Shown here one piece after another: positions 28,631 to 48,563 of a stretch of DNA of 64,000 nt. This DNA is from a virus, in IMG/VR virus record IMGVR_UViG_3300043411_002794, positions 128,195 through 192,194 of that record; one strand, given 5' to 3'. The notes beneath the pieces were generated by a model. The model saw only the letters and a list, made by a program, of their open reading frames with translations, did no database searches and was not told the DNA's origin. Position 1 is the stretch's first letter. Every line of letters begins with the position of its first letter. The position numbers and the translations under genes are program-made.

Positions 28631-29089
28631 TCACCCGCCCGGGGTTTGTGACGCCGCCGCGGCTTGCTGGCCAAAATCCTTCGCGGACGGGCCGTCAAAC
28701 AGCGGAGCCATCGTATTTTTACCACGAACGAACCCGGCCATCCCGGCAATTGCAGGCAGTCCGCCGCTTCGCAAGACGCCGCCCATCGGCATCAGCGCAT
28801 GCAGCAATTGCGGGGCCGCCTTCTGTAAAGCCGGCATAACCGAGGACATCAAACCGGCCTGCTGCAGCTGCGGCGCGACGGCCTTACCGGCGTCGGAGAC
28901 GGCGTTGACGCCCTTGTTCAACCACTGCAAACCAGTGTCCGCCACGTCACGAAAACTCCAGCCGCCGGACGGTGCCGGGGTTGCTGGTGCGGGCGGCGGA
29001 GACGCAGGCGATGCCGCGGGCGCAATGCTCGGTGTCTTGGCAATCGGCTGCGATAGCGGCTGAATTCCAGGCGTCTCCATAGTTACCAT
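28631..29089 (-). CDS. Pro/Ala-rich hypothetical protein
   Basis: 152 aa; overlaps the RNAP beta'C stop by 7 nt. Confidence 0.55.
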   Translation of the reverse strand: MVTMETPGIQPLSQPIAKTPSIAPAASPASPPPAPATPAPSGGWSFRDVADTGLQWLNKGVNAVSDAGKAVAPQLQQAGLMSSVMPALQKAAPQLLHALMPMGGVLRSGGLPAIAGMAGFVRGKNTMAPLFDGPSAKDFGQQAAAASQTPGG

Positions 29090-30954
29090 CCCTTAGTCGG
29101 GCCGGTGAGCCCGAAGTCTTTTCCTTCCGCAAGCGACGGCACGAAGCTGGTTCCGGCGGTGTCCGAAACGTCTCCGCGATGCACGGCCTTGAGGAGTCCC
29201 TTTTGCTGATACGAACCAAGTCCGCGAACCATCCAGTCCTGATCCTGGGAAACGCTGGCCATCCCGCGAATCATCTCCGGCGAGAACGGCGGCGGATCCT
29301 TATGCGCATGCACGGCATTCACGCCGAATTGCTGCAGCTCGTCGAGCATCTTCTTACCGATCTTCGTCCCGATCGTGTAGTGCAACACGGGTTTTTCGAG
29401 GTAATGCCCGACCACGGTGTTCGGCGGGGCCACGTAGTAACCGGGCCGCGGTTCCCAGTGTTTTTCTATGCTGGAGTACGGCACAACGTCGCCTGGTGCC
29501 CAGTCGCCAAGCTCGTCGTCGAGGCGGACGTGATTGATGAGGCCGCGCGCCACCAGCTCGATATTCCGTCGGTTTCCGTAGGTACTGCTGTTTTTGAGCG
29601 TATCCCGAAATGAATTGACGAAGTAGCGGCGACCTTCGCCAATCCCTTTGTGATGCACGATTTCAGCCGGGTTCGGCACGCCTTCAGACAGCACGTCCCC
29701 GGCTTCAACCATGTCGCCTTTCTTGACGCGAAGCGGTAGCTCGGCGGGCACGTAATGCTTGGCGTCGCCGACGATCACGAAATGCCCGCCCTGCGGGGCC
29801 GGATTGATCGCGTGGACCTTACCTTCGAGTTGTGCGTGCGTTGCCCCGTTCGGAAAGACCTCGGGCACTTGCACCAGGGCGTTGATTGCCTTGAAGCCGC
29901 CGACGGCACCCGCCGTGGCACCAGCGACGCCGCCGGAGTGCTTAGAGCTGATCGTGGCTTGTGTGACCGGTTCTGAGAGGGCGTTGGCGGCGGCAATCCC
30001 GACATAATCGCCCAACGGCGACAGGCCTTGGCGTTCCCGGTACCCGGCGTCGCGCGCATACACGCCGCCGTCCGACGGACCGCCGACGGCCGCCGAGCGA
30101 ACCAAAATGCGGCTGATACCTGCTGCCTGCAGATCTTTCAGCACGCGGGGCGTTAAATGCGTATTTCGCGGGTAATTGGCGGCCGGATGCGCCAGTAAGG
30201 CGCCTTCATTATCGGCATCGTTGACGTCCACAGGGTAACCGCGGGGCGACGCTTCATCGTACGGATCGTCGTCATCGTCGGCCGTGACCAGGAGTCGATG
30301 GGCCGCCTGCATGAGCTGTTTGGCGAAGAACCCGGCGTCCGACGTACCGGCCTTCAAGTCGATCACGCCTTTGCGCGTACCGAAGGCACCGGCAAAGTAT
30401 TCGGCCGGCGTCAGGCCTTCGCTGTAGCTGTGCATCACCGGAATCGGGATCGGTCGTCCCCGGTGGTCTTCGTAGAGCAGGTCGGCCCCGCGCAGGCTGT
30501 TCAGCGACGAAGCGTTGCCGCGACCGGCCCCGGCCAGCTGACTCGCCAGCGGGTTATCTTCGGCCTGGCTCTCCGCCAACACGTCGTCCACGAGCTTCGG
30601 CCGCACCTTCTGGATGGCGGCTACGATCGCATCGTTCCGGGCATCGCCGTCGAGCTCCGGGTTGTTCAGGATCTTCTGGATCGCTGGTTCGAGCTGCTGT
30701 TTGGCGAGCCGCGCGGACAGCGCGGGGCGAATTGCCCGCAGACCGAAAGAGTTGCCGTTGCTGAGATAGGCGGCCCGGCTGCCGACTTTCGAGAGCCGGA
30801 ACATGATGTCCCGGTACTTCTCCGGATGCTTCTCGGCGATCAGGTCGCCGAGGTCCACTATGGTCTTCTTGTTGACGACCCGGTCGTAGTCCCTGATGTC
30901 TTCGGGCAGCACCGAATTAACTAAGAGCTGACCTAAAGTCGTTTCAAGGGGCAT
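29083..30954 (-). CDS. rpoC: RNA polymerase beta' C-terminal half (bridge helix, trigger loop)
   Basis: TTLGQLLVN; GAGRGN; bridge helix YSEGLTPAEYFAGAFGTRKG...AGFFAKQL; trigger loop GIAAANALSEPVTQATISSKHSGG. Confidence 0.92.
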   Translation of the reverse strand: MPLETTLGQLLVNSVLPEDIRDYDRVVNKKTIVDLGDLIAEKHPEKYRDIMFRLSKVGSRAAYLSNGNSFGLRAIRPALSARLAKQQLEPAIQKILNNPELDGDARNDAIVAAIQKVRPKLVDDVLAESQAEDNPLASQLAGAGRGNASSLNSLRGADLLYEDHRGRPIPIPVMHSYSEGLTPAEYFAGAFGTRKGVIDLKAGTSDAGFFAKQLMQAAHRLLVTADDDDDPYDEASPRGYPVDVNDADNEGALLAHPAANYPRNTHLTPRVLKDLQAAGISRILVRSAAVGGPSDGGVYARDAGYRERQGLSPLGDYVGIAAANALSEPVTQATISSKHSGGVAGATAGAVGGFKAINALVQVPEVFPNGATHAQLEGKVHAINPAPQGGHFVIVGDAKHYVPAELPLRVKKGDMVEAGDVLSEGVPNPAEIVHHKGIGEGRRYFVNSFRDTLKNSSTYGNRRNIELVARGLINHVRLDDELGDWAPGDVVPYSSIEKHWEPRPGYYVAPPNTVVGHYLEKPVLHYTIGTKIGKKMLDELQQFGVNAVHAHKDPPPFSPEMIRGMASVSQDQDWMVRGLGSYQQKGLLKAVHRGDVSDTAGTSFVPSLAEGKDFGLTGPTKGW

Positions 30955-32004: not shown

Positions 32005-35000
32005 CTAGGGACGCATGATCTTAATCCGTCGCGAGCCGTCGATTTCACCGCGTTCGTAAGCCCGTAATGCGTCCGCCGGGGTTTCGAACACCGTCGGGCG
32101 GTTGTGGGTATCAATTCGCGACGTCAAATGATACATGCCGCCGACGTATTCCTGACTCGGCAGGTAATGCGTACGGAATTTGGCGACGCTGAACAGGTTC
32201 TTGCTGGGGAGCATTTTCTCGGCCATTTCTTTGGCCGCTTCATCGTCTGCGGGCAAATGGAACTGCATGGCGTCACCGTCGAAGTCGGCGTTAAAGCCGC
32301 CGACCACGAGCGGCGAGATCTGCATCGTGTGCCCCTTCATGATCTTCGGCCAGAAGGCCATCACGCCATAGCGGTGCAACACCGGGGCGCGATCGATCAT
32401 CACCGGCCGCTGACCCATCTCCGACACTAGCGCTTCACGCGCAACCGGATGCTTGTTTTTAACGAGCTGGGCCGCTTGCAGTCGCGGCATCCCGCGGCGA
32501 ACCAGGTGCCGCACGGTGTACGGCGTGTAAAGATCCCAGGCCTTTTCCTCCGGAAGCCCGACGCTGTCCATGTCCAGATCCGGGTTGGGCGTAATCGTCG
32601 CTCGCCCGACAAGATCGGTGGTCGTGCTGAGCAACTTGCGCTGAATCATGCCGAACTTCGGACTCGAGCCGAAGATCTGCTTGAGTAGACCTTTGACGCC
32701 CCGCTCCTGATTCTTCGGATGCTGCGGCTCACCGAGGCCCGACACCGCCTTCATCGCGTCGTACGTCGCCAGCCGTTCGTCACCGACGTCATCAACCTTG
32801 TCGGACATCTGCTTGAGCACGTCGTTGGCGTCGAACAATTCTTTGTAAAGATAGTTGGCATCGGCCACGAGCGGCAGCTTCTTCTGACCCATCGTCGTCA
32901 CGGGGCGGAAGCGGGGCGGCAGCACCGGCACTTTACCCATGATCCAGTCTTTGGGGTGCACGCCGGTGCGGGCGGCCGCCGTCAGGAAGCCGAATTTGCG
33001 AATGGCTTCATCACGCTGGGTCTTCCGCGCGCTCTTGAGCGACAAACGGGTTTGTTCGATCTCGCGATCGAGATCGATGTTGGACAAGGCCTTGACGATT
33101 CCCTGCGGACCGCTGACGCCGTGCAGCGACTCACGGCCGGCCAGTACGTCCCGCATCTTGTTCTCAGTCAGCCCGAGAACGCGGCGAATCGGCTCTTCCA
33201 TCACAGGGTTCGGCATCGGCTCATGCAGCCGAATAGCGGACCACCGCGTGCCTTCGTGGCCGCCGGTGATAGCCTCATCAAATAGACCGCCCCGCTTCGG
33301 CTTGAGGCCGTTCTTCCAGTCCACCGTCTCGGTGTTTTGGATCTCGCGGCCGCCGGTCAGCTCGTCGACCTTAGCCGGACTCATAGCCATCAGCTGCGTC
33401 CGTGTCCCGTCTTTAACTGGATGGATCCCGGCGCCCTGCAGCATCCCAATGAACTTTTCGTAGGTCTTCGGGATTCGCGGCGTCGTCGGCTGATAGCCGG
33501 ACATGAACTGCGACCAGAACTCAGGATTCGCCTGGCCCCGAATCATCTTCGCTTCACGAATGACCTTCCCGGCGCCGTGCGACAACAGGGCACCGAGGTT
33601 GAGCATGCCGATCCGCTTAGCGCCGCTCTCGCCGCCCTTGGCCGGAGCACCTTCGCTGGTGTAGCCGCCGATGCCGCGGCCCTGGGCCTTGGCTTCCGAC
33701 GTGTGATGCAGCTTCATGAACCAACGATTCCCGGCAAAGACGTTCGGGATCTTCTTGCCGGTCTCCGGATCGATAACCGAATCCAGGTCGCTGAGGTTGT
33801 GCTTTCGCAGTTCGCTCATCGCAAACTCGACGGCATCGGTCGCCGTTCGGAACGGCACCTTATACGGCTTGCCGGTGACGGCCGCCACTTTGCCGAGAGC
33901 CGCCTCGATCATTTGGGCGGCGTTCACGCGGCTGATGACGCCGAGCGGATTGGTGAGGATCTCGTAGGGTTTGCCTTGTGCGTCAGTCGGCATCTCGTCG
34001 TCGGGAACGATCATCGAAATGACGCCCTTGTCGCCGTAGCGACCACTGAGCTTGTCGCCGACTTCAGATGGAACAGTGGCCTTCACGACGACTGTGGCGC
34101 CTTTGTCGGTGTTGACGACGTCAGTTACAGTTCCCGGGGCATGATGGTCCCAGGTGATGCTGCTATCAATGACCTCCGGTCGTCGACCACGATGGATCGC
34201 TCCATGTGTCCGTTCGCGTTCTGTGATACTAAGTACCAGGGGATCGCCGTAACGGATCTCTGTTCCTGGTTTGACGACTCCGTCGTCGGTGAACTGGTCG
34301 AGGACGGCACGATGAAATCTTCCAGGAAAGTTTGACAGGAAGGCATTCTTGCCGCGGCGGACGTCGGGTCCCCATTCGGCGACATGCTGATAGGCATGCT
34401 CGGAAGATAATCGCTTGGCAGCGCTCTCGCTGATGACGTTGGCGTCTTCAAAATTGGCTCCGCGGAAGGGCAAATATGCGACGCGCAGGTTTTTACCCAG
34501 CGCAGTAACGCCCTGACCGTCCGTGAAATTGGAGCGCGCCAAAAGCTGCCCCGGCTGAACCACGTCGCCCGGTTTGACGACAGCGGTCTGCGTGATGAGG
34601 GTGTTGTGCACGATGAGCCCGTGGTCGACACCGAACACCTCCGATTCAGCAACGCAGAAATCGTAAACATGGGCTTCGTGCGGGATTGCCTCCACGGCGA
34701 CTACCGTATCCCACATAACGTCGGACGCACCCCACTTGCCGAAGTTGCCGGTACCTGCGACCAGCCGATGCTTGGCCACAGCGCCCTTACCAGCGGTCTT
34801 GTAAACATAATTGGACGACTGCGGCAGTTCGGCATACAGCGACTTTCGGGCAAGCTTAGACACGATCGGCACCATGTCGTACGGCGACGCCCGGTACGCC
34901 CGACGAAGCAGTTCGCGGAAAAGCTGCTCGCGATCGTCGTAGAAGAACCAGCGGGAGAGCCGTGAGAGGTGGCTGCTGATGATGCGGAAGCCGTACGCGT

Positions 35001-37656
35001 CGTTCCAGTTATCGTTGAGGTGTTGCCGCGGGGCGTCGAACAGCGTCGAAAAAATCTGCAGCGAGGCGGCCAGCGTCACCAGTCCGTCGCGAAGTCGGCG
35101 GGACGTGCTAACGGCCTGGACTTGAATCGCCCCGCCGGCGTCTGCCCAAAGGCACCCGTCTCCGGCGAAATAGCCGCTCAGCAGGCAACTCCGCGCGTCA
35201 CTTTGCCACGTGAGCACCTCCGGCGAAATAAACTTACCGCCGGAGGTGCAGCCGAAATTCGTCAGGAGCCATGCGCGTAGTTCGTGCGACGTAAAGCAAA
35301 CCTCACCGCCGACGCGATAAGGCGACGTCCCGAGCCGCTGCAGTAATTCCAGGATCTGTGCTGCGCGAATATCGGGCTCAACCGCAATTTTTACGAGCCC
35401 TGCCTGCTCTGGCAGGTGTCCTTCGGCAAGATATAGGCCCGCAAGCGAGGCGAGATCAGTAGATACTTGTGCGTCGCCGTCGCACGGCACCATGGCGACT
35501 GGCAGCCGCGTGCGATTGATTACCACGTCAGCAGGAAAGATTGGCGACAGGTTCCCGGCTGCATCCAGCGTCACCAAACTATGATCGATCGTAATGTCGA
35601 CTGCACGGCCGGACGCAGTCCGAACACGAACGAGCCGCTTATCGTTGTCGTGCCGAATAAATCCGGTAATTCGGCACCACTTTGATTTTTTCGTAAGCGG
35701 GTCGACAGAAAGTACGTCGTCGCCGGCGTGCGCGACATACTCAGAAATTGGACCTTCCCAGTACCCACCGTTACGCCGAATCAGTACGCGAGTACGCCCG
35801 GTAACGCTTTTACGGTTGTACGGCATGTTGTCATAGAGATCGACTCGCTTCTTGCTGCCGTCGGCATGCTTGAGCACGATGCCGTTACGATCGACACTGA
35901 CGACGCTGGCCGGTTGATCGGCGTGCACGGCGCCCATGTGCTTGGCATATTCTTCTTCGAAGCTGCGTTCGGCGTTCTCGGGCATCGCACTCTGTACGAG
36001 CGGAGCTTCGCCATCCTGCAACGGCAACGCTTGGGTCACCATTCGCGCGGCCATCACCGCCCGCTGGCCCTTGACCATCGACTTGAGCGGAATGAGGTTC
36101 GCCAACGGCGAGAACGTGTCTTCGATCGCCGGCAGCACGTAGTCGACCTTGTCGGCTCGTTCGTACCGCATTTTGCCGCCGGCGAGCACGTTGACGAACG
36201 TGTTGCCGCCGTACTGCACTGGACCCGTTTTCCGTCCGTCGCCGCCCCAGAACTTTTTGGCGGGCGGCTCCGGTCCGTTTGGGTTCACCGGTGCTTGCGG
36301 CACGGGCTCGAAAGCAATGACGGAATCGGCCAGATCCCGGGCAGACTTGTATTCTGTCTGCCCAGATTTCGCGTTCTGCAGCGGGAAGTACAGAAAGCCG
36401 TCGTCGCCTTTGACGGCTTTGCGGGCCAGCCGCATGTCGACGCCCACTTTTCCGGATTCCGGAGTCCGCAAAAAGTCAACGAAGCCCAGGTGCGTCGGCT
36501 GCACGGCCCGCGATTCCTCGGGCACGGCGTCGAGGCTGCTGATACCGCCTTCGCCCATACGGGTCAGGCGGCTTTGCTGGTCGAAGATTTCGGCCGGATT
36601 GATTTCTTCAATCGGAGCGCCGAGGCCACTACCGATGATCGCGGACTGAATCGCACGATCGAAGAAGCCGGGTTGCACGCCGTCAAGATTCTGGCGGGCC
36701 GATACCTTCCAGAGCAGCTTGCGCAACTCGCCGCCGCTCTTTTCCAGCCGCTCCGCCAGCAGGTTCTCCGGCCCGAGCACATGCTGATAGGCCATGTGGT
36801 CGCGGTCGTCGGGCTCCGCTTCGCCGCGATTGATATCCAGCAGCTTCTTGGTGGTCGCCAGTATCGTCGGCAGGTCCAGCTTGGTCGACTTGTGCTTCAG
36901 CGTGCGATTGGTGACGAAGTCGTCGAGCTCCATACCGCCGAATGATTCAGCAACGGCCTTTGCCATTACCTCCGGGTCCGCTCCTTCGACCCGGTTGCGG
37001 GCGACGCGGTCGTACAACTTGCGGATCACCGTGTTGTCGGCCTTGGCGGCGTTGATGCCGGCCAGGTCGTTGCCCCAGGTGTCGCGGAGCTGCTGATCGG
37101 TGGCGCCCATTGCCCGCAGCAACGGATAGAGCGGCATGTTGGCCTGCGCCATGTTCAGTTTGAACACGCCCGACTCCGGATCCATGAAGATCCGGTGCCC
37201 GCGGCCCTTGCCTGGCAGCACGTTGACGTGTGCTTCCAGCTCGCCGTTCTGCTTCTTACGGGCGAAAATCCCCGGTGCGAGCCGGAGCTGGTGGGCCAAC
37301 GTATATCCCACGCCGCGGTTAATAAACAAACCGTCGTCGATCAGGTACGGGACATTTGCCAGCGTCGCCCGTCGCTCCGCAATCGATTTCCCGGTCGCGT
37401 TGTCGCTCAGTTGCCAGGTACCGCGTAAACGTCGTGTTAGCGACGTACCGCTCAACACGGCCCGCTTCACGTCCTGCTTGCTGTACTCTTCCGGGCCCTC
37501 GTAGGCGACGTCGGCGAGCTGCAGCGTATGTCGCTGGTTCTGGACCGGCTTCAGTGCCGTGGCTGCCTTGAAGACGTTGTCGAAGATCAGCTTGCGCGTC
37601 GTGGGCGCATCGCCGAAGTTTCGGAACGACGGGGCGACTGGCAGTAATTCGGACAT
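32005..37656 (-). CDS. rpoBC: Fused RNA polymerase beta + beta' N-terminal half, with intein
   Basis: Beta motifs RTPESGKVG, GANFED, GDKLSGRYGDKGVIS, NPLGVISR, MKLHH; beta' motifs VPVLPPRFRP, RAPVLHR and catalytic NADFDGD (32272..32292). Confidence 0.96.
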   Translation of the reverse strand: MSELLPVAPSFRNFGDAPTTRKLIFDNVFKAATALKPVQNQRHTLQLADVAYEGPEEYSKQDVKRAVLSGTSLTRRLRGTWQLSDNATGKSIAERRATLANVPYLIDDGLFINRGVGYTLAHQLRLAPGIFARKKQNGELEAHVNVLPGKGRGHRIFMDPESGVFKLNMAQANMPLYPLLRAMGATDQQLRDTWGNDLAGINAAKADNTVIRKLYDRVARNRVEGADPEVMAKAVAESFGGMELDDFVTNRTLKHKSTKLDLPTILATTKKLLDINRGEAEPDDRDHMAYQHVLGPENLLAERLEKSGGELRKLLWKVSARQNLDGVQPGFFDRAIQSAIIGSGLGAPIEEINPAEIFDQQSRLTRMGEGGISSLDAVPEESRAVQPTHLGFVDFLRTPESGKVGVDMRLARKAVKGDDGFLYFPLQNAKSGQTEYKSARDLADSVIAFEPVPQAPVNPNGPEPPAKKFWGGDGRKTGPVQYGGNTFVNVLAGGKMRYERADKVDYVLPAIEDTFSPLANLIPLKSMVKGQRAVMAARMVTQALPLQDGEAPLVQSAMPENAERSFEEEYAKHMGAVHADQPASVVSVDRNGIVLKHADGSKKRVDLYDNMPYNRKSVTGRTRVLIRRNGGYWEGPISEYVAHAGDDVLSVDPLTKKSKWCRITGFIRHDNDKRLVRVRTASGRAVDITIDHSLVTLDAAGNLSPIFPADVVINRTRLPVAMVPCDGDAQVSTDLASLAGLYLAEGHLPEQAGLVKIAVEPDIRAAQILELLQRLGTSPYRVGGEVCFTSHELRAWLLTNFGCTSGGKFISPEVLTWQSDARSCLLSGYFAGDGCLWADAGGAIQVQAVSTSRRLRDGLVTLAASLQIFSTLFDAPRQHLNDNWNDAYGFRIISSHLSRLSRWFFYDDREQLFRELLRRAYRASPYDMVPIVSKLARKSLYAELPQSSNYVYKTAGKGAVAKHRLVAGTGNFGKWGASDVMWDTVVAVEAIPHEAHVYDFCVAESEVFGVDHGLIVHNTLITQTAVVKPGDVVQPGQLLARSNFTDGQGVTALGKNLRVAYLPFRGANFEDANVISESAAKRLSSEHAYQHVAEWGPDVRRGKNAFLSNFPGRFHRAVLDQFTDDGVVKPGTEIRYGDPLVLSITERERTHGAIHRGRRPEVIDSSITWDHHAPGTVTDVVNTDKGATVVVKATVPSEVGDKLSGRYGDKGVISMIVPDDEMPTDAQGKPYEILTNPLGVISRVNAAQMIEAALGKVAAVTGKPYKVPFRTATDAVEFAMSELRKHNLSDLDSVIDPETGKKIPNVFAGNRWFMKLHHTSEAKAQGRGIGGYTSEGAPAKGGESGAKRIGMLNLGALLSHGAGKVIREAKMIRGQANPEFWSQFMSGYQPTTPRIPKTYEKFIGMLQGAGIHPVKDGTRTQLMAMSPAKVDELTGGREIQNTETVDWKNGLKPKRGGLFDEAITGGHEGTRWSAIRLHEPMPNPVMEEPIRRVLGLTENKMRDVLAGRESLHGVSGPQGIVKALSNIDLDREIEQTRLSLKSARKTQRDEAIRKFGFLTAAARTGVHPKDWIMGKVPVLPPRFRPVTTMGQKKLPLVADANYLYKELFDANDVLKQMSDKVDDVGDERLATYDAMKAVSGLGEPQHPKNQERGVKGLLKQIFGSSPKFGMIQRKLLSTTTDLVGRATITPNPDLDMDSVGLPEEKAWDLYTPYTVRHLVRRGMPRLQAAQLVKNKHPVAREALVSEMGQRPVMIDRAPVLHRYGVMAFWPKIMKGHTMQISPLVVGGFNADFDGDAMQFHLPADDEAAKEMAEKMLPSKNLFSVAKFRTHYLPSQEYVGGMYHLTSRIDTHNRPTVFETPADALRAYERGEIDGSRRIKIMRP
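34603..35808 (-). mobile_element. Intein (402 aa) with LAGLIDADG endonuclease, in RNAP beta
   Basis: Starts SVTGRTRV (Ser1); ends IVHN followed by +1 Thr; LAGLYLAEG and LSGYFAGDG motifs; flanks rejoin as YNRK-TLITQ. Confidence 0.9.
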
Positions 37657-39927: not shown

Positions 39928-40548
39928 CTACCGCCCGAGGAAACGACTGAATAGCCGCCCGCTGCTCGTCGGGCAGTTTCCGCCTGGGCAGTTGCTTCGC
40001 GACGCCGTTGGCTGCGGGGCGGACTTATCGACGGGCTTAGCCGCTGGTTGCGGTCGCACAACGTACTCCCACTTGGTCCGCCCTTCGTGATGGTCGGAGT
40101 GCAGAGATTGCACTTCCTCATGCGTCAGGCTGGCCAGCCAAGCTGAATCGAACAGCCCGGCGTGCTGCCCGACGGTGAGATGCCGCCAGCTGCCACAACC
40201 GCTCCACCAACGACTACGGATCGGATAATGCACCCGCTCTTCCGGCTGCGGTGTGACTTCCGGGACGTCCGGCGTAATGACCGCCGGAGCATCGCCCGGC
40301 TTTTTCTTCTTGCCGGTGCCGTCGCACTCCGGACAAGTCACGAAAACGGTGCCGTCGCCGAGCTTACCCTTACCGTTGCACTCCGGACAGGTGTCGGAAG
40401 TCGGCGACGGGGTTGGAGTCGGGATGACCGGCGCCGGTGTGGCCGCCCGCAGGGCGAGGATCCCGTAGGCCAGATCGAGGAACTCGCCGGCAGCCGACTG
40501 TCCGACGAGCCCCGTAAAGATCACGAGACTTAACAGAATCCGTTTCAT
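39928..40548 (-). CDS. Secreted protein with DnaJ-like CxxCxGxG zinc finger and His-rich domain
   Basis: Signal peptide; CPECNGKG...CPECDGTG; LHSDHHEG; C-terminal CPGGNCP. Confidence 0.7.
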   Translation of the reverse strand: MKRILLSLVIFTGLVGQSAAGEFLDLAYGILALRAATPAPVIPTPTPSPTSDTCPECNGKGKLGDGTVFVTCPECDGTGKKKKPGDAPAVITPDVPEVTPQPEERVHYPIRSRWWSGCGSWRHLTVGQHAGLFDSAWLASLTHEEVQSLHSDHHEGRTKWEYVVRPQPAAKPVDKSAPQPTASRSNCPGGNCPTSSGRLFSRFLGR

Positions 40549-40566
40549 AGTCCCGTCCTTGAGCTA

Positions 40567-41655
40567 TTAGCCGACGATTAAATCCAACGGCGGCAGTTGC
40601 TTCGTCGGCCAGCCGTTGGTGCCGCTAAGCGCCAACATGCTGCGATTCCGCACTGCCGACCACGGCGTCCAGAACGCGCCTTCCGGAATGTCGATGTCCG
40701 TACCGAGAATCCGGCGGCCGCCCTTGTTCCACTTGCCCCAGCTGTTGAGGATGAGAACAAGCGGTTCTTTGTACTTTTGCTTGATGATGTCACGATCGTC
40801 GACGCCGATGAGGGCCATGGCGTGCGACCAACTGCCTTTGCGGTAGCTGACGCCGTTTTCGTCGCGGGTGTTCGACCAACCCTCGCCGCCGCAGGTGCTG
40901 ATGCCGTAGCCGTTGGCGAGATAGTCTCGCACGTCGGCGAACGTGCGCACGCGCGTGGCTTGCCGCACCAGATGCTTGCGGCCGACGGACGTAATCGACT
41001 CCGGCGGAGCAGAGCGGCCGTACTTGTGCGCCAACGATCCGCTGTAGCGGGTCAAGTCGATGCCGAGTTCCGGGTACGCGTTACGGAGCCACAAAGCGGA
41101 CCGCGTAATAGCGACGTTTGCAGCAGCCTCGCAACTCCAGCCGTCGCCGGAGTAGCCGCGATACCAGTAGATGGCCTCGCTCGACAACGCCCCCTGCAAA
41201 ATGCCGGTCGGGTCGATCACCGGTACGCCTTCAACCTGCCCGGTTTCTTCATCCGGCTTGCCGGACACGATATCGCACGACATTGTGGTCAGGGCGGCGT
41301 TCTTCGTGTCGTGCGACACGCAGTCGCCGACTTGTTGGGCCGCTCCCGGCCAGCAACCAGGGAACAGCCGCATGACGAACACGAACGGAGCGACAAGCCG
41401 CCCTTCTCCGCTGCCCGACAGTCCGTTCGCCTTGGCGACGCTCTCGCCGTCCAGGTTACCACCGCTGCCGACGATCATGTTCTCGAAGTCGGCGATCGCG
41501 ACCGGATCGTGCCAGACGCCCGCGTTACCGTCGGCGTACATCTGAGCAATCTCATCGGGCGATTGCGCGACGCGATCACCCGACCAAAATTGAAACTGCC
41601 GCTCACCGGCAACATTGATAAGCTGCGCGCTGTCCGGACGGAGTAACGTCGTCAT
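40567..41655 (-). CDS. Papain-like (C1-type) cysteine peptidase
   Basis: Catalytic motifs in papain order: QQVGDCVSH (Cys), WSHAM (His), ILNSWG (Asn). Confidence 0.8.
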   Translation of the reverse strand: MTTLLRPDSAQLINVAGERQFQFWSGDRVAQSPDEIAQMYADGNAGVWHDPVAIADFENMIVGSGGNLDGESVAKANGLSGSGEGRLVAPFVFVMRLFPGCWPGAAQQVGDCVSHDTKNAALTTMSCDIVSGKPDEETGQVEGVPVIDPTGILQGALSSEAIYWYRGYSGDGWSCEAAANVAITRSALWLRNAYPELGIDLTRYSGSLAHKYGRSAPPESITSVGRKHLVRQATRVRTFADVRDYLANGYGISTCGGEGWSNTRDENGVSYRKGSWSHAMALIGVDDRDIIKQKYKEPLVLILNSWGKWNKGGRRILGTDIDIPEGAFWTPWSAVRNRSMLALSGTNGWPTKQLPPLDLIVG

Positions 41656-41671
41656 AGCAAACCTTCCCTGG

Positions 41672-41689
41672 TTCGGTAATTAGAAACCC
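41672..41689. promoter_or_regulatory. TTCGGTAATTAGAAACCC motif (copy 3)
   Basis: Intergenic, 16 nt upstream of the peptidase ATG; exact inverse of 25568..25585. Confidence 0.55.
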
Positions 41690-41697
41690 GCGAACAA

Positions 41698-42639
41698 CTA
41701 GCGGGCACAAGCCCAGGCGACGGCCTGGACATACTCAACGGCCTTCACGGGATCGAGTTTACCGTCTTGCTTGCCGAGATAGCCCTGCAATGCCTGTGTG
41801 GCGGCCGTGCTAAACCCAGGGAAAGCGCCGGCCAGCTCCGCCTTAATGGCGACAGCGTTCAGGAACGTCGCAAGCGTGCCCTGAAACTCGAGGACCGTGG
41901 TTGGCGGCATCACCCGCAAAGCCACGGCCAGGTCGCTCCACGCCGACGAAAACCGATTAGCTTTCACAGGATCAGCGGTAGCCATCAATTGCTTCAACGG
42001 GGCGACCAGTGTTTGCAGCTCCGCCGACGGCGCCGGAATAGCGGGCGTAACAGGAGTTACCGGCGTAACGGGAGTTACTGGTGTCACCGGAGTCACCGGC
42101 GTAACAGGAGTCACCGGCGTAACAGGCGTTACCGGTGTCGGCGAGTACGGCAAAATCGAAAAGCTGTACTTCCAAAGCAGCGACTTCCCTTCACGAAGCC
42201 CGCCGGCGAGTACGACGTATTCACCCGCCGTGTCGGTACTGACCTGCAGCGTGCGATTACTGTCGGTGTACGCTTCCGTCAGTTTCGGCGGCACGATCGC
42301 CCACTGCGGTTCAGTGACGTTATCGGGCAACTTGAACGTACAAAGAGCGCCGAACTTCACGGGACCGGCGGGCCCGGCAATGTCGCCGGTATTGGTGACA
42401 GCCGTCGCTGTGCCCGTTGCCGTCGGCGTCGGGATCGCGAGTACCGGTTTGCCCTGCTGATCGACCACAACAACGGTCGTCGGCTTGGCGGGTACGTCGA
42501 ACAGCTCTTTGCGGCCGGCGAATACAAGACCGACGCTCAACAAAACAGCAGCGAGCGGAAGCCATTGGCCCAGCGGGCCTTTGGTAGGTGCGGGAAGCGG
42601 CATGGGTACATTCCTTGCGAGTGACGAAACCTGCGGCAC
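41698..42639 (-). CDS. Membrane-anchored protein with Ig-like domain, (TPV)10 linker and helical C-domain
   Basis: N-terminal hydrophobic helix [17 protein letters not shown]; Thr-Pro-Val repeat. Confidence 0.75.
42044..42139 (-). repeat. 9-bp degenerate tandem repeat encoding (TPV)10-TP
   Basis: Ten 9-bp units plus a partial unit, with synonymous variation. Confidence 0.95.
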
Positions 42640-42645
42640 TGTGCC

Positions 42646-42999
42646 TCAGGCGTTGGTGAGTTGCTGCAGAAAGAGATCAGCTTCTTCAGGCGTCGCGTTC
42701 TGGCCGACGTCGACAAGAGCTTGCACGATCTCGGGGCCGAGTTTCTTGAACTGGGTCCGGCCGAGTTCTTTGATGATCTTACGACGCACGACCAACTGCT
42801 GGCCGAGCATCGGGCGACGCAGCGACGCAGCGATCACCGGGCGGTCGGTTTTCTTCTTGAGGCACTCTTGGACGACTTCCAGCACGGCCGAGAGTAACGC
42901 CAACCACGTGGTCGGGTCGAGCTTCACCGCGGCCCCGTTTTCGCCGGGCAACTGAGCCTCGACGCGGGTCCGGACTTCACTCAACATGTCGGTGGCCAT
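42646..42999 (-). CDS. Hypothetical protein (117 aa) in the putative lysis cassette
   Basis: Amphipathic WLALLSAVLEVVQECL segment; AAAGGA RBS. Confidence 0.7.
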   Translation of the reverse strand: MATDMLSEVRTRVEAQLPGENGAAVKLDPTTWLALLSAVLEVVQECLKKKTDRPVIAASLRRPMLGQQLVVRRKIIKELGRTQFKKLGPEIVQALVDVGQNATPEEADLFLQQLTNA

Positions 43000-43005
43000 A
43001 ACGAA

Positions 43006-43335
43006 CTATCCTTTAGACTTTGTCTCCGCAATGGTGGCGGACTGCATCAGCACCAGCTGACGCTGTAGTTCGGTTGCCGCCACGGCCTGCTTGAGACTGG
43101 TACGAGACGAAATGTAATGCCACAAAATCCAGGTGTTGGTTAGCAACACCGGAATCGTCGTGTAGAGGTCGCTGAAAGCGGCATTGAGCTGCTTCGCTTG
43201 TTCTGGCGTCAGGCGGCCGACGATGGTCAGCACGACGATGACATTACCGACGAGGCCTGCCAGCGTCGTCCAGAACTCGGTGGTGAGATAGCCCGGCTTG
43301 ATCTCGGGCGTCGGTACGTCGTCCGTGGCGGCCAT
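43006..43335 (-). CDS. Holin-like two-TM protein
   Basis: KPGYLTTEFW motif followed by two hydrophobic helices; start moved to MAATDD. Confidence 0.55.
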   Translation of the reverse strand: MAATDDVPTPEIKPGYLTTEFWTTLAGLVGNVIVVLTIVGRLTPEQAKQLNAAFSDLYTTIPVLLTNTWILWHYISSRTSLKQAVAATELQRQLVLMQSATIAETKSKG

Positions 43336-43414
43336 ATGTTTGCTTCCTTGCAAATAGGCAAAAGTGAATGCCAACTAACGTAACGCGCAGGCAGGGCGAC
43401 AGGCAACTAGAATC

Positions 43415-44518
43415 TTAGGCCTGAAACAACGGCGGGATCACGGCCGTCAGTATCCCGGCGAAAATCCCGGCGTCCTGCAGCTTGTCTTGTGCCTGCGGCG
43501 CCAGCCCGGCCAGGGCACCGATAGCCTTTCCCGCCAGGGTCGCGGCGGCCAGCCCGCCAGCGGCACCGGCGACACCGCGAACAAGACTGTCAACGCTAAT
43601 GAGCGACGATCCGAGTTGCTGCGCGACTCCTGATGTAATGGCGGTCGTCGCGGCCGCAACTTGCGGAGGTGTGTGCAGTTGCTGCGTGTTGTCGCCCCAC
43701 GGGCTCTTAGATCCGTAGGGATTGAACTCGGCCGACATGACGCCCTTCCGTGCATCTCGCCAGACCATGCGATTGAACGCATCGACGGGAATGCTGGGGA
43801 TTCCGATGTTACCCCCCAATCCCGTCATGCCGAAGGCGAGCTTTTCCAACATCGCTGGAACCGGCACACCGCGAAGCAGCTCGGCGGCCTTTGCTGTCGG
43901 ATAGTCGCTGCTGATGAGTCCTTGCGCGGGGTTCGTACCATCGACGCGGCCGTAGAGATCCGCCTTGTACAGGCCAGGGATCGCGCCGACGGCTGCGCCG
44001 GTCAGTCCGAGCGTCTTCCGCAGCTTCCCTCGCTCCATGTAGCGATCGGGGAAGAGGTGCTCCATCACGGTCCCGGCGCCGTAGCCCAGCGTGCCTGCCA
44101 GCAACGAGCCGACGATCGCGTCGGTCAACGGGTACGGGCCGCCGATCGCCTTCCCGGCCGTCTGATAAGCTTGCCGGGGATCGAGCCAGTTCGCCGCGGC
44201 GGTCTTCACCGGGACGTTGTCCTTGGGGACCCACTCGCGATCGATCCAGATGTTTTCAACACCCCGCACGTCTTTGAGTCGGTTGTGCCAGGCGTTCTCC
44301 GCCGCAGCGTCGGCTTTGTCGGGCAACGAGATGTTGAGCGTCTTGCGCTGCTTGTCCCAGTAAACGCGGGTGTCGGCGGTATGCGGCAGGCCGACCAGCA
44401 GCTTGCGGACGGAGCCGGCAACGAACGCAGCCTCTTTCAACGAAGCCACGACCATCCCGGGAACTTCCTCCCAGGCGTTCAGCTCGGCGGCGACTTTGAT
44501 TGTGGTAAGGGCATCCAT
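43415..44518 (-). CDS. Glycine-zipper virion-internal protein (putative)
   Basis: 367 aa; KVAA, KEAA, KTAA, KLAF; several Gly/Ala-rich hydrophobic helices. Confidence 0.75.
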   Translation of the reverse strand: MDALTTIKVAAELNAWEEVPGMVVASLKEAAFVAGSVRKLLVGLPHTADTRVYWDKQRKTLNISLPDKADAAAENAWHNRLKDVRGVENIWIDREWVPKDNVPVKTAAANWLDPRQAYQTAGKAIGGPYPLTDAIVGSLLAGTLGYGAGTVMEHLFPDRYMERGKLRKTLGLTGAAVGAIPGLYKADLYGRVDGTNPAQGLISSDYPTAKAAELLRGVPVPAMLEKLAFGMTGLGGNIGIPSIPVDAFNRMVWRDARKGVMSAEFNPYGSKSPWGDNTQQLHTPPQVAAATTAITSGVAQQLGSSLISVDSLVRGVAGAAGGLAAATLAGKAIGALAGLAPQAQDKLQDAGIFAGILTAVIPPLFQA

Positions 44519-44530
44519 GCCGGGCCTCCG

Positions 44531-45157
44531 TTAAGCGGGCGGCCGTAGCGTACGCGATAACGCCGACTTTACCAACGGAGAAGGACGTGCCAGGGCTGCC
44601 TTGAGCGCCGGAGAGACATTTTCCCAGGCCAGCGGACACGGATCCAGGTGCCGCACGAAGTCGAGCAGTGAGGCGGCCTTGGAAGTCGGATTGCTTCGCA
44701 AAACGCCGACTTTCCGCACGGCGAAGGTGATGTGAAATTCGTACGTGTCGTTGGGCAGACTGCTCAGCCCGTACGTCCGTCGCAATGCCTTGAGCTCGGG
44801 ACTCTGCACTTCGATAAACCAGACGCGGCTAACACCATCCCAAGTACCCGGCACCACGGTCTTCACCGGCCCGAGCGTGTAGTGAAAGTCCTTGCCGCGT
44901 TCGGTGATCTTGTCGATGCCGCCGATCTGCTGCAGCTCTTCGGGACGCATCACGCTGATATGCGCGTTGTACGTCTCCGCGTCGCCGCTGGTCGGCAGCG
45001 AGATCCCGGGTTCATTGAGCGCCTTGAACGCAGCCCGACCAATGTCGTTTGGGGCCTGGAGCAGCAGCCAGCCGCTCTTAGAGGCGTACAGCTTACCGGC
45101 CAGCCCATACGACAACTCCGGCGCGCCCGCCGCCTTAATTGGCTCGGAGTGAATCAA
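44531..45157 (-). CDS. 2H phosphoesterase (LigT/Acb1-like fold)
   Basis: Two HxS/T motifs, HISV and HITF; TTG start at 45157 with AAGGAG RBS at 7-nt spacing. Confidence 0.8.
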   Translation of the reverse strand: MIHSEPIKAAGAPELSYGLAGKLYASKSGWLLLQAPNDIGRAAFKALNEPGISLPTSGDAETYNAHISVMRPEELQQIGGIDKITERGKDFHYTLGPVKTVVPGTWDGVSRVWFIEVQSPELKALRRTYGLSSLPNDTYEFHITFAVRKVGVLRSNPTSKAASLLDFVRHLDPCPLAWENVSPALKAALARPSPLVKSALSRTLRPPA

Positions 45158-45701
45158 AGATCGGCTCCTTCGGGACGTTGTCAGGCCGAATGAACGCAAC
45201 AAACTCCGGCGCACCGTCGACCATGAACCCGCGGCAAAAAATGGACACGTGCAACGACGTGCCGTCTTTCTTTTTGGCGTCGCCGTCAAAGTGCGATTTC
45301 ACTTCGCGCGTCTGTGCCGTAAATTTCTGCGGCGCCTTTGCCATGTATTCGACGTGTGTTTTCCGAAACGCGTCGGCGACCAGTAACGAAGACGGTTTGC
45401 CGAGCAACTCGGCAGGCTTATAGCCGAGCATATCGGCCAGCGTCTTATTCACCGCGGTAATGTTGCCGCGACTATCACACACCACGGCACCGACGGGCGA
45501 GCTGTCCATAACTATCCCGAAACGACGCTGCTGCATTTTCAGCAATTCTTCGTACTCGTCGACCTTGGCCTTGAGTTCGTTCTCTCGCGACAGTTGTGCG
45601 TCGCGGACGTACGAAAAACGGTAGCCGTTGACGATGATGAGTACGATCATCACCACGAGCATACCGCCGGCTAGTAAAAACCGCGGACTACGCTTGTTCA
45701 T
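45135..45701 (-). CDS. Membrane-anchored single PAS-domain protein (FixL-like, possibly heme-binding)
   Basis: TM helix and coiled coil, then PAS (DSRGNITAVNKTLADMLGYKPAELLGK...KKDGTSLHVSI); His in FRKTHVEYM at the FixL ligand position; no output domain. Confidence 0.85.
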   Translation of the reverse strand: MNKRSPRFLLAGGMLVVMIVLIIVNGYRFSYVRDAQLSRENELKAKVDEYEELLKMQQRRFGIVMDSSPVGAVVCDSRGNITAVNKTLADMLGYKPAELLGKPSSLLVADAFRKTHVEYMAKAPQKFTAQTREVKSHFDGDAKKKDGTSLHVSIFCRGFMVDGAPEFVAFIRPDNVPKEPIFDSLRAN

Positions 45702-46054
45702 CCTTCTCCTCCGGGCTGTTCGCCCTTGCCGTTTTGCCCGTTCTTATTACTGCCTATGCGCAAGCTGAACCCGCCATTCTCCTGCACAGTTCGCCAGAGA
45801 TCGAAGATGCTGACGCCGCCCAGGCCGCCGGCAGCACTTACGCCGAGCAAAAAATAAATGTTCCCCTCTTCGCGATACTTGTTGTACCAGATCAGCGCGA
45901 TCGTGATACCGGTCATGCCGCTGTAGAGCACAGCGGCAACCACGGCCTTTTTCGTCAACTTTTTCGTGCTATGGAGCAGCCCGGCCAGTCCTCCGACCGC
46001 AGCTAAAGCGAAGGCACTCAACATCACACGCAAAGGATCAAACTGCTCTTCCAT
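45698..46054 (-). CDS. Holin-like three-TM protein
   Basis: 118 aa; three hydrophobic helices and a charged hydrophilic tail; ATGA overlap with the PAS gene. Confidence 0.65.
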   Translation of the reverse strand: MEEQFDPLRVMLSAFALAAVGGLAGLLHSTKKLTKKAVVAAVLYSGMTGITIALIWYNKYREEGNIYFLLGVSAAGGLGGVSIFDLWRTVQENGGFSLRIGSNKNGQNGKGEQPGGEG

Positions 46055-46344
46055 GAAATTTCCTTTGCAACACAGTTTGCGTCCCTGAGATCCCCTTCCT
46101 CAGGTCCAGACGCCGAGGTTACCCCCAGCGTTAATTGCAACAACCAGTACGGCGTCCCCGCCGTAGACACCGATCGTTACTCCTCCAAGCCCCGGGTCGC
46201 GGCCTTAACCATGACCAGAGGCGTCCCGGTATGAACCTATGCATCCTGCATCGAGCTCGTACCTCCTAACCAGCCAGTGTCATGACTAACGCACCGTGTG
46301 CCGTCGAATGATAAAAAAGCGGCCGCAGAAAACCAAGAGACGTT

Positions 46345-47493
46345 CTACTCCCAGGCAGAAAGGGTTTCACAGACATTGGATACGGCCGCCGAAGTCGTAA
46401 AGGGAGAGATCGCGAGATAGATGCCATGCTGCTGTACGTGGCGGGCGTTCGTAAGCGGTGACAGGTTCCGAATACCAAATCGCTGCATAAACGGCTGCAT
46501 CGCTAAATTTCCGGCAACAATCGGCCTCGTGGCAATCTCAGCCAGCTGGAAATGATTCACCAATGCGTGCCGGCGTGCAACGCCACCTTCTGCAAGCACC
46601 AGCGGATACGCGAACCAAGAATGACGACCTTCGCCGATTTTATATCGTAAAAATCCATCCGGCGTGGCTTGACGAATCTGCGTGGCAATGTTGAACCGAC
46701 GCGTCTGCCACTCCTCAACAAAGGGTAGTTGTTTAAGGCCCAGCTCCCCTTGAATCTCCATCGGTCGGACGTTGTAGCCGAGCGTCGGGAACAAGAACCG
46801 TGGATCCAATTCCGGATGGCGATCCGCCCAAAACTTCATCCGCTCCGCCCCGAGATCCCGGATCCAGCCATGCGCGCGCTGCATCACGAGTTCTTCGTAC
46901 AGCTCCGGTGAATTCGTCGTCACCATCCCGCCCTCGATCGTGACGAGGTGGTGGCTATAGAAGAAGCTGAACGTACCCATGTCGCAGTCGGAGCCGACAT
47001 GCCGACCTGTGCCGAACGTATCGCGACCTGCCGGGCCGTAGTGCGTGCCGAGTGCTTCACAGCAGTCCTCGATCACATACTTGAACGTGCCTGTGTCCAC
47101 TTGGGGCGGCTGCCCGAGCAAATGGCAGTTGAACAGCACATCGCACCGCTCGTCGACGTGCTGGCGAAGCACCAGCGTCGAGAGATCTACGTCGAGCAGA
47201 ATCGGCTTCAACCCGAGCTGCACGACCGGGGCGATCGTGGTACTCCAGTTGACGGCCGGAATACCGACCGTCTCGATCTCCGGGTGCAGCGTCTTGAGTG
47301 CGCTGATCGACAACAGGTTGGCGGACGAGCCGCTGTTGACCATAACGGCGTACTCGGTACCGACATATCGGGCAAACTCGGTCTCAAACGCTTTCACGAA
47401 CCGGCCCATCGACAACTCGCCGGAACGAATGCACTCCAGTTGCTGCAGCGTTTCCGGGCCGAAGGGCGGGTTAGGTACTAGCTGGTCCTTCAT
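46345..47493 (-). CDS. colD: DegT/DnrJ-family PLP/PMP enzyme, ColD-like NDP-4-keto-6-deoxyhexose 3-dehydratase
   Basis: VNSGSSAN, IEDCCEALG, SFFYSHHLVTIEGG (His in place of the Schiff-base Lys), AHGWIR. Confidence 0.75.
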   Translation of the reverse strand: MKDQLVPNPPFGPETLQQLECIRSGELSMGRFVKAFETEFARYVGTEYAVMVNSGSSANLLSISALKTLHPEIETVGIPAVNWSTTIAPVVQLGLKPILLDVDLSTLVLRQHVDERCDVLFNCHLLGQPPQVDTGTFKYVIEDCCEALGTHYGPAGRDTFGTGRHVGSDCDMGTFSFFYSHHLVTIEGGMVTTNSPELYEELVMQRAHGWIRDLGAERMKFWADRHPELDPRFLFPTLGYNVRPMEIQGELGLKQLPFVEEWQTRRFNIATQIRQATPDGFLRYKIGEGRHSWFAYPLVLAEGGVARRHALVNHFQLAEIATRPIVAGNLAMQPFMQRFGIRNLSPLTNARHVQQHGIYLAISPFTTSAAVSNVCETLSAWE

Positions 47494-47821
47494 GAGCTTT
47501 CCATGCCTCGTGGTTGTGCAATCGCGGGCGGCAGTCGGCTAACAGGATCTGCCGCGGACGCCACCGCATGCCGCGAAAACATTGAATTCCTACAACTTTG
47601 GTGACGGGATCATAAAAGCGAACAACTACATAGTGGCTCCGTCCAGCAGGTACATTCTTGGCGAAGACTTCCTCTCCGCATTTTGGAATCCATCCGGACG
47701 GAAACGGCCTCGCAAATACCTCCGCCAGCTCCGCCCCTTCTTTCCTAGCCTTCGATAACTGAGCCTTCCTGGCTGCGCGTTCCGGCGTCTCCCTCGCCAG
47801 CGGTCGCGTTACTCGCGGCAT
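47471..47821 (-). CDS. Small basic hypothetical protein
   Basis: Fills the gap between the GT and ColD-like genes; start uncertain (overlaps the upstream gene). Confidence 0.4.
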   Translation of the reverse strand: MPRVTRPLARETPERAARKAQLSKARKEGAELAEVFARPFPSGWIPKCGEEVFAKNVPAGRSHYVVVRFYDPVTKVVGIQCFRGMRWRPRQILLADCRPRLHNHEAWKAHEGPAST

Positions 47822-48563
47822 ACGTGCTCCAGTCGGTAAGGTTGATCTCTTCCGGCCAGACTTCGTCCAACCCGCAGATCTCAGGGTGGGCATCGTACCA
47901 CGCCTTCACAGAACCCCGCCACCGTTCGCAATACTCCTGTCGCGTGCCGAGTTCGTCTCGGCCCTTCCCGGCCTCGTGCGTGATCTGCAGATCGTCGACC
48001 ACGATGTTCTGCAGACCGAGCATGCGAGCGCGAATGCTAATCGCCCGATCGATGTGGCCGTAGTATTCCATCGGACACAGGTTCACCATGTCTTGCAGCA
48101 GCCGCGGCCCGTACCACGGCGCGATCGTCTCAATGAAATTGCATCGCCGGGCGCCGGTGCCTTGCTTTTCCATCGTCGGCCAGACCGTGCCGCCGAGTTT
48201 GATCGCCGGAGTGATGATCCCGCGGCGATGCGCACTGATGTCTTGAACGGCGGCCGCCAGTTGCTGAATGAAGTTCGGGGCGTAGTCGTAGGTGTCGTTG
48301 TTGATCATGCCCACGAGATCGTACCCGGCCACCTGCGGCTGTCCGCAGAGCAGCTGTTTCAAGACGTAATCGATCATGCCGCCGTGTCCGCGATTGTCGG
48401 AGCCGATATGCTGCGTGTGCGGCGTCTGCGGGATCAGATCTTCCCGGCTGTTGTCCAGAATCACCAGCTTGTGCCAGTCGGGACAGCCGATCAACAGCTC
48501 GTTGTAGCAACGCATCGTGCGGGCGGGCGTGTTGTACGAAAAGATGACGGTCAGGATCTTCAT
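47745..48563 (-). CDS. Glycosyltransferase, GT2/GT-A fold
   Basis: ILTVIFSYN, VILDNS, MINND motifs. Confidence 0.75.
   Translation of the reverse strand: MKILTVIFSYNTPARTMRCYNELLIGCPDWHKLVILDNSREDLIPQTPHTQHIGSDNRGHGGMIDYVLKQLLCGQPQVAGYDLVGMINNDTYDYAPNFIQQLAAAVQDISAHRRGIITPAIKLGGTVWPTMEKQGTGARRCNFIETIAPWYGPRLLQDMVNLCPMEYYGHIDRAISIRARMLGLQNIVVDDLQITHEAGKGRDELGTRQEYCERWRGSVKAWYDAHPEICGLDEVWPEEINLTDWSTYAASNATAGEGDAGTRSQEGSVIEG

Follow-up and report, generated by a model that had tools for sequence, protein, structure and literature searches.

A holin-like gene coupled to a membrane-anchored PAS partner of the FixL class in a jumbo-type phage

The window analysed here is the last 64 kb of the 192,194-bp IMG/VR virus record IMGVR_UViG_3300043411_002794, the completeness of which is estimated at 93%. 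Its long gene-like open reading frames (ORFs) lie on the minus strand. A multisubunit RNA polymerase is encoded in the window, which indicates that this phage, of about 200 kb, is of the jumbo type. This study concerns two adjacent minus-strand genes: ORF A (45698-46054), which encodes a protein of 118 amino acids (aa) with three membrane helices, and ORF B (45135-45701), which encodes a membrane-anchored PAS protein of 188 aa. In an initial annotation of the sequence, a three-helix protein of 118 aa was described as overlapping a PAS gene through the tetranucleotide ATGA. Both reading frames were found to be open at the coordinates claimed there. The ATG of ORF B (45701-45699) overlaps the TGA of ORF A (45700-45698) within the ATGA at 45698-45701, and a GGAGGAG Shine-Dalgarno sequence is located at 45706-45712, inside the 3' end of ORF A and 4 nucleotides (nt) before the ATG of ORF B. 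The coupling junction thus spans 45698-45712. A non-coding gap of 290 nt (46055-46344) precedes ORF A and is probably the start of the transcription unit; a gap of 377 nt is found at the equivalent position in a related locus (L005). Neither a sigma-70-like promoter nor an Rfam match was found in the 290-nt gap, and promoter, terminator and Rfam scans around the operon start gave nothing useful.

The ORF A and ORF B proteins

The hydrophobic segments of ORF A were placed by hydropathy at about residues 10-27, 37-57 and 66-86. Its N-terminal tail is acidic, the first loop (HSTKKLTKK) carries a charge of +5, and the C-terminal tail is charged. From this charge distribution, the N-terminus is predicted to be outside and the C-terminus inside. 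Members of holin superfamily III (Pfam Phage_holin_3_1, 3_2 and 3_3) have about 100-120 aa, three helices, the N-out/C-in orientation and a charged tail, and ORF A has the same size and predicted topology. Its own PHROG matches are to the holin families phrog_785 (E 4e-4) and phrog_6384 (E 8e-4), which are weak, yet consistent across the clade. A profile of the clade retrieved 329 small-protein relatives among 1.84 billion representatives, 146 of them at E <= 1e-10. When 98 of the 329 were profiled, 64 matched phrog_6384 (best 2.7e-10), 23 matched phrog_785 and 15 matched phrog_175, all three of which are annotated as holins. The Pfam families of LydA (Phage_holin_3_3, 12 of the 98) and of P2 Y (Phage_holin_3_2, 10 of the 98) were matched as well. 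In a feature search of the ESM Atlas, the top clusters were those of holin superfamily III, with a score of 0.91 and 213 of 256 features in common. The holin-like nature that had been proposed for the upstream protein is thereby supported through its relatives in PHROG, Pfam and the ESM Atlas. ORF A is quite likely a divergent member of holin superfamily III, linked to it only through these relatives, and it may act as a holin and as the lysis holin of the phage.

The ORF B protein begins with a K/R-rich N-terminal tail, which is followed by a membrane anchor at residues 8-25 (45627-45680), the single hydrophobic segment of the protein. A long helix or coiled-coil stalk comes next (residues 26-67; 45501-45626), and then the PAS domain (residues 68-175; 45177-45500). 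The AlphaFold2 model has one continuous helix from residue 7 to residue 67 and then a PAS fold. The domain was recognised by Pfam PAS_9 (2e-10), Pfam PAS (1e-9) and TIGR00229 (5e-14). Nothing follows the PAS domain, so the protein lacks a kinase, a cyclase or any other output domain. Hydropathy, AlphaFold2 and Pfam therefore agree with the architecture first read from the translation, namely one membrane helix, a coiled coil and a single PAS domain without a kinase or cyclase. The topology had been called ambiguous from the charges; those of the ten homologs favour a cytoplasmic N-terminus with the PAS domain outside. The residues before the anchor carry a net positive charge in 10 of 10 homologs, and those after it are acidic in the subgroups of two further loci, L008 and L009. 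By the positive-inside rule, the basic N-flank would keep the N-terminus cytoplasmic, and both stalk and PAS domain would lie beyond the membrane. The PAS domain of ORF B is thus predicted, from charge distribution, to be extracytoplasmic.

The initial annotation had also suggested a comparison of the PAS domain with FixL and EcDos (DosP). With the single sequence of ORF B, the best PDB matches were RmFixL (1d06; 5e-5) and DosP (8e-5), with the heme histidines aligned. When a profile of six close homologs was used instead, each of the 14 top-scoring distinct PDB sequences was a heme PAS domain (1e-12 to 5e-8), among them RmFixL (1e-12), DosP (5e-12), BjFixL and FG214 (PDB 10jx), and the first other PAS domain appeared at 2e-7. 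The same tendency was seen at the level of the predicted fold. The top Foldseek matches of the ORF B model were heme PAS domains, with the proteins named above in first place. In VIA-align, which uses structure only, BjFixL was aligned with a Z of 16.6 and a root-mean-square deviation of 1.9 Å over 104 residues, and heme PAS domains made up 19 of the 20 best entries (3bwl, at rank 9, is the other). ARNT/HIF and other PAS types had a Z of 14.5 or lower, which is a modest margin. In all three comparisons heme PAS domains rank first. As far as sequence and predicted fold can tell, the PAS domain of ORF B is of the FixL/DosP heme class.

His116 (codon 45354-45356), in the segment FRKTHVEYM of the F-alpha helix, is the candidate for the proximal heme ligand. 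The pattern of the FixL heme pocket had been recognised at this codon from the letters alone, and in the HMMER alignment His116 indeed falls on the proximal histidine of RmFixL and on His77 of DosP. The F-alpha motif R-x-x-H-x-x-Y-[ILM] is common to FixL, DosP and ORF B. The segments KKDG...HVSI and PEFVAFIR, which had been compared with the G to I strands of FixL, are aligned with those strands too. The ten homologs of ORF B form three subgroups with 23-25% identity between them, and His116 is invariant in all ten, being one of only 17 invariant columns of the alignment (A10). Cys75 (codon 45477-45479), on the first PAS strand, is also invariant in 10 of 10. One homolog of the L008 type, P0162, is homologous to the whole of ORF B, the anchor included (BLASTP 6e-12), and matches BjFixL at 1.4e-10. 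It keeps the counterparts of BjFixL His200, Arg206 and His214, and through it His116 is identified as the counterpart of His200. On balance, ORF B probably binds heme b through His116.

The partner slot in related loci

The initial annotation had suggested a search of phage genomes for a conserved adjacency of holin and PAS genes. Such adjacency holds for part of the family. The order of three-helix gene and PAS gene, overlapping or nearly abutting, was found in six of six close relatives, which are collinear with the window: a DegT aminotransferase gene, a gap of about 300 nt, the three-helix gene, the PAS gene, a gene for a 2H-SAK phosphoesterase, a gene for a protein of about 370 aa and, further on, the RNA polymerase. 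The same pairing is present in two more distant loci. In L008, an 88.8-kb contig from an NCBI assembly, the three-helix protein is 37% identical to ORF A, and the triad of three-helix, PAS and 2H-SAK genes has overlapping genes and different flanks; the pair is also present in L009. The junctions between the two genes in the relatives are 4-nt overlaps (17 nt in L008) or gaps of 2-5 nt. On the other hand, ORF A relatives at 33-42% identity were found in 54 IMG/VR loci, many of them from genomes of about 200 kb, and a PAS protein of the ORF B type occurs in none of the 54. The gene overlapping the end of the three-helix gene there encodes a protein of about 50 aa with a basic N-terminal tail and one membrane helix. 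Directly after other ORF A relatives, an 86-aa protein with a helix plus a coiled coil or a three-helix protein of about 110 aa is encoded.

A second kind of PAS partner was found in L066. The remote ORF A relative P0145 (E 1e-11 with the clade profile) lies there after D5 primase-like genes and is directly followed by an anchored PAS_3-type protein, recognised at E 1.5e-5, exactly the Pfam cut-off. This partner is without the FixL histidine and has no detectable relation to ORF B, and there is no 2H gene next to the pair. After it, at L066:4684-5595, stands a gene for a lipoprotein (lipobox LLGGC) with a coiled coil, cut by the contig end. The order of holin-like gene, type II membrane protein and lipoprotein in this locus is like that of holin plus spanin genes.

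No further PAS partners were obtained in IMG/VR scans with ORF B or in a scan of JGI metagenomes with the alignment A2. IMG/VR held no relatives of P0145 or P0167, the GTDB genomes contained no ORF A relative, and the GenBank phages gave no match to ORF A or ORF B. Another remote ORF A relative, at L070:647-1549, adjoins a gene with a prepilin N-methylation motif and DUF1559. The DUF1559 prepilin-type family is greatly expanded in Planctomycetes, so this neighbour hints at a Planctomycetes host for at least part of the holin-like family. The survey delineates a previously unannotated holin-like family of 329 representative clusters with variable partners.

The conserved core is composed of the three-helix protein, a single-helix partner, a 2H-SAK protein and a Gly-rich protein, and the PAS domain is an addition to the partner in certain lineages only. 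We interpret the position after the holin-like gene as a slot reserved for a partner, into which sensor domains were recruited more than once. The best argument for a joint function of ORF A and ORF B is that a partner with a PAS domain is found again among unrelated genes, its domain being from a different PAS subfamily. A descent of the ORF B anchor from the single-helix partner of about 50 aa was considered and rejected, since hhalign gave a probability of 1.8%; only position and architecture are in common. In P1 LydA/LydB, P2 Y/LysA and PBSX XhlA/XhlB, the holin gene is directly followed by the gene of a small regulator or co-factor. Variable small membrane partners in one slot are what holin-antiholin pairs look like. 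No likeness of ORF B to LydB, LysA or XhlA was found in the PHROG and Pfam scans, and none of these three is known to have a sensor domain, unlike ORF B.

The gene after ORF B, at 44531-45157 on the minus strand, encodes a 2H-SAK phosphoesterase of about 208 aa (Pfam PF22547, E 7e-10) with a TTG start after AAGGAG. Its overlap with the end of ORF B is 23 nt, as in relatives, but 4 nt in L008. 2H-SAK homologs follow the holin-like gene in every related locus long enough to show it, frequently as fusions with NUDIX, AAA or DUF5661 domains, so that the holin-like family is tied to these enzymes in a large group of phages of about 200 kb. This arrangement, seen in several lineages, raises the possibility of a split sensor-phosphodiesterase of the DosP kind, with ORF B as its sensor half. 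ORF B would then control the downstream 2H-SAK protein and make the degradation of a cyclic or 2',3'-cyclic phosphate nucleotide dependent on O2 or redox state. ORF B has DosP among its best matches, and heme-PAS control of phosphodiesterases is established for DosP and AxPDEA1. Such a role is very unlikely, however. The 2H-SAK gene follows the holin-like gene without any PAS protein in the 54 related loci, and in L066 the PAS partner is not followed by a 2H gene. An extracytoplasmic location is predicted for the PAS domain, whereas the 2H protein has no signal sequence. Finally, ORF B occupies the slot of the small membrane partner and not that of a 2H-associated protein.

Proposed function and its alternatives

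The overall result suggests that ORF B would be a dedicated, translationally coupled membrane partner of ORF A. ORF A would belong with the small membrane proteins of holin superfamily III, such as lambda S, P2 Y and P1 LydA. ORF B would have its N-terminus in the cytoplasm, followed by one anchor helix and a helical stalk, and would carry the PAS domain on the outer (periplasmic) side. The ligand or the redox state of the PAS domain would change the action of ORF B on ORF A in the membrane. ORF B could be an antiholin, as T4 RI and P1 LydB are, or a holin co-factor, and the time of membrane permeabilisation would become dependent on an environmental or envelope signal. That a holin-family protein is modulated in this way by a coupled partner with an outer-side, FixL-class and probably heme-binding PAS domain is given a probability of about 0.4. 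The idea of a sensor-antiholin is plausible. Its narrower form, a lysis timer gated by O2, is unlikely. A prediction of the complex between ORF B (alignment A5) and ORF A (alignment A6) scored 0.00 in both runs, a value that carries no weight either way on binding.

A model for the layout of ORF B is T4 RI, the antiholin that acts on the holin T in lysis inhibition. T4 RI, like the inner-membrane subunits of spanins, has an N-in anchor and a periplasmic domain. RI has an N-terminal membrane or signal-arrest-release segment and a globular periplasmic domain and acts on a holin; the same arrangement is predicted for ORF B, and a delay of lysis by a periplasmic signal would be common to both. The differences are clear. 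RI lacks a PAS domain, its gene is not adjacent to gene t, and ORF A has almost no periplasmic domain that could be bound. ORF B gave no match to the RI family of PHROG; its sole PHROG match was phrog_10776 (E 0.002), which has no functional annotation.

Several observations weigh against the proposal. ORF A itself has no Pfam holin match even at E <= 1. The adjacency in the six close relatives is weak evidence when taken alone, because these genomes are collinear through shared ancestry. The AlphaFold2 model of ORF B, built from a shallow alignment, has a moderate mean predicted local distance difference test (pLDDT) score of 75.7. FixL and DosP are cytoplasmic sensors fused to an output domain, whereas ORF B has no kinase, EAL or other output, has a single N-terminal anchor, is predicted to be extracytoplasmic and is phage-encoded and coupled to a holin-like gene. 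The predicted location is unusual for a heme b PAS domain; loading with heme b would be less straightforward there, which counts against reading ORF B as a simple FixL-like O2 sensor. The distal ligand residues of the FixL/DosP class are also absent in the HMMER alignment. The O2-binding Arg of FixL (Arg220 in BjFixL, Arg214 in RmFixL) is aligned with Phe138, which is invariant in the subgroup of the window, and Met95 and Arg97 of DosP are aligned with Val134 and Ser136. At the position of the distal Arg in the two other subgroups, Arg is placed by MAFFT and Val by HMMER. The alignment of the distal loop is therefore uncertain, and retention of the distal Arg in the L008 and L009 subgroups is not claimed. 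With Phe138 at the Arg position, the sensed signal need not be O2.

ORF B might instead have a purely structural role, as an anchored stalk of the XhlA or spanin kind that assists ORF A. Its PAS domain would then serve for dimerisation or bind a non-heme ligand, without any sensing of gas or redox state. The slot is filled elsewhere by a bare helix or by a helix plus a coiled coil, the PAS_3-type partner of L066 has no FixL histidine, the distal Arg is not conserved around ORF B, and the outer location makes heme loading harder to account for. On the other hand, His116 is among the few positions without any change in homologs with as little as 23% identity, heme PAS domains come out ahead of every other PAS type in the sequence, profile and fold comparisons, and the L008 subgroup keeps the counterparts of the three FixL residues, His200, Arg206 and His214. 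A purely structural or non-heme role of ORF B is thus considered unlikely.

Further difficulties for a holin with a sensor partner lie in its genomic surroundings. No match to cell-wall hydrolases of ten Pfam families (PF00959, PF01464, PF01510, PF00182, PF01471, PF13539, PF01520, PF01551, PF00877 and PF05838) was found in the 192-kb record, and no endolysin domains were found in the neighbouring genes. A lipobox scan of the coding strand from 40000 to 46400, with ATG starts only, gave no lipoprotein candidate, and no ORF is embedded in ORF B. The architecture of ORF B fits that of the inner-membrane subunit of a two-component (Rz-like) spanin, a type II membrane protein with a periplasmic coiled coil, but the scan showed no gene for the outer-membrane lipoprotein. 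With no hydrolase match and no lipoprotein candidate, the block cannot be recognised as a lysis cassette. The phage may still have an endolysin from another family or in the 7% of the genome that is missing from the record. Phage P1 keeps lydA and lydB apart from its endolysin gene, so the lack of an adjacent endolysin is not decisive. The neighbouring proteins of the pair belong to no known families, and its constant companions, the 2H-SAK and the Gly-rich 367-aa proteins, may point to another function; the 2H phosphoesterase suggests RNA repair or counter-defence rather than lysis.

These surroundings would be explained if the pair were a membrane module unrelated to lysis timing. It might serve in superinfection exclusion, in protection or modification of the envelope, or in joint work with the 2H-SAK, Gly-rich and two-helix neighbours, which might be virion-delivered or envelope-targeted; the holin likeness would then reflect only the shared ancestry of small three-helix proteins. 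A block of the three-helix protein, its partner, the 2H-SAK protein, in some cases a membrane protein, the 367-aa Gly-rich protein and a two-helix protein recurs in the 54 related loci, and neither an endolysin nor a spanin was seen by the hydrolase and lipobox searches described above. ORF A is also conserved at 59% identity where the PAS partner is at 43%, which is unusually high for a holin. A non-lysis module is nevertheless rather doubtful. The relatives of ORF A point to holin-annotated families; size, topology and charged tail fit class I holins; and overlapping small membrane partners are typical of holin-antiholin pairs. The coiled-coil lipoprotein after the PAS partner of L066 has a spanin-like placement, and the separation from the endolysin gene is matched in P1.

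For the sensor partner of a holin that we favour, no precedent was found. Known antiholins respond to the state of the phage itself or to superinfection, and we know of no antiholin with a classical ligand-binding sensor domain. The initial annotation had named no described phage system of this type, and a full-text literature search on holin or antiholin together with PAS domain retrieved none either. The sole lysis-linked phage PAS sensor in the literature searched was VqmA-Phage of vibriophage VP882, a phage PAS receptor that couples an external chemical signal to the lysis decision (PMC8284805). VqmA-Phage combines a cytoplasmic PAS domain with DNA binding, acts as a transcription factor on the lysis-lysogeny switch and binds DPO, not heme. 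It is not a membrane partner of a holin, as is proposed for ORF B.

If the proposal is true, the pair would give a phage a direct post-translational route to time lysis by oxygen, redox state or another chemical cue, and a FixL-class PAS domain would be working outside the cytoplasm without a fused output domain. More broadly, the partner slot of the family may have recruited extracytoplasmic PAS domains repeatedly, with FixL-type heme domains in three sub-lineages and PAS_3 in another. These partners would then form a new class of sensor-antiholins that gate holin triggering and lysis timing on oxygen, redox state, gas or other envelope signals, a generalisation that is fairly unlikely. Since the two proteins are small (118 and 188 aa), the pair is open to a direct bench test.

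Neighbouring genes and other features of the window

Downstream of the partner of about 50 aa, the 54 IMG/VR loci encode a large protein with a 2H-SAK domain at its start, a small membrane protein and homologs of two proteins of the window, of 367 aa and 122 aa. The single-domain 2H-SAK protein of the window corresponds to the N-terminal domain of proteins of 435-650 aa (L013:4575-6023, L034:4590-6437, L028:4583-6517 and L015:3440-5392), which carry NUDIX, P-loop kinase-like and DUF5661 domains in addition. A sequence matching the DUF5661-like part lies outside this locus, at positions 7951-8160 of the genome. The multi-domain 2H-SAK proteins look like a modular enzyme for nucleotide signals or for RNA-end processing, possibly used in counter-defence.

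The Gly-rich, mostly helical 367-aa protein (43415-44518, minus strand) is a member of the conserved block, with homologs in 37 related loci. It gave no Pfam, PHROG, NCBIfam or PDB sequence match, and its model is poor (pLDDT 57). The protein is conserved across the phage family and has Gly-zipper-like hydrophobic helices. Its small N-terminal alpha/beta domain has a weak ring-building or BON-like likeness, with a Z of up to 7.6, below the noise level of the tool. A small protein with two membrane helices is encoded next (43006-43374, minus strand; likely ATG at 43335) and has homologs in 26 related loci. Upstream of the operon, on the minus strand at 46345-48563, lie the gene of a DegT/DnrJ-type aminotransferase (E 5.5e-55) and its neighbouring genes. 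In related phages, the module of three-helix protein and partner is surrounded by glycosyltransferase, epimerase, nucleotidyltransferase and radical SAM genes.

A 362-aa protein encoded at 40567-41655 on the minus strand has papain-like motifs (GDCVSH, SHAMALIGVD and NSWGKW). No Pfam, PHROG or PDB sequence match was obtained for it, and the Peptidase_C1 profile did not match either. In the ESM Atlas it falls into large viral clusters, and Peptidase_C1 proteins make up 14% of one of these. A role as a virion or maturation protease, or as a cell-wall peptidase, is conceivable. The 313-aa protein encoded at 41698-42639 on the minus strand has an N-terminal membrane anchor and ten tandem Pro-Val-Thr repeats as a linker between two domains, and is by these features envelope-targeted.

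The RNA polymerase of the window includes a 1883-aa fusion (32005-37656, minus strand) of a beta-like part (Rpb2_6) and a beta-prime-like part (Rpb1_1 and Rpb1_2). The fusion is interrupted at about residues 635-1018 by an intein with a LAGLIDADG endonuclease, and a separate Rpb1_5 protein is encoded at 29083-30954. The version of the fusion in L005 has 1504 aa and is apparently without the intein. Between the polymerase and the 362-aa protein, at 39928-40548 on the minus strand, a 206-aa protein with a DnaJ-type zinc-finger motif is encoded, which has weak DnaJ and anti-TRAP matches at about residues 50-82.

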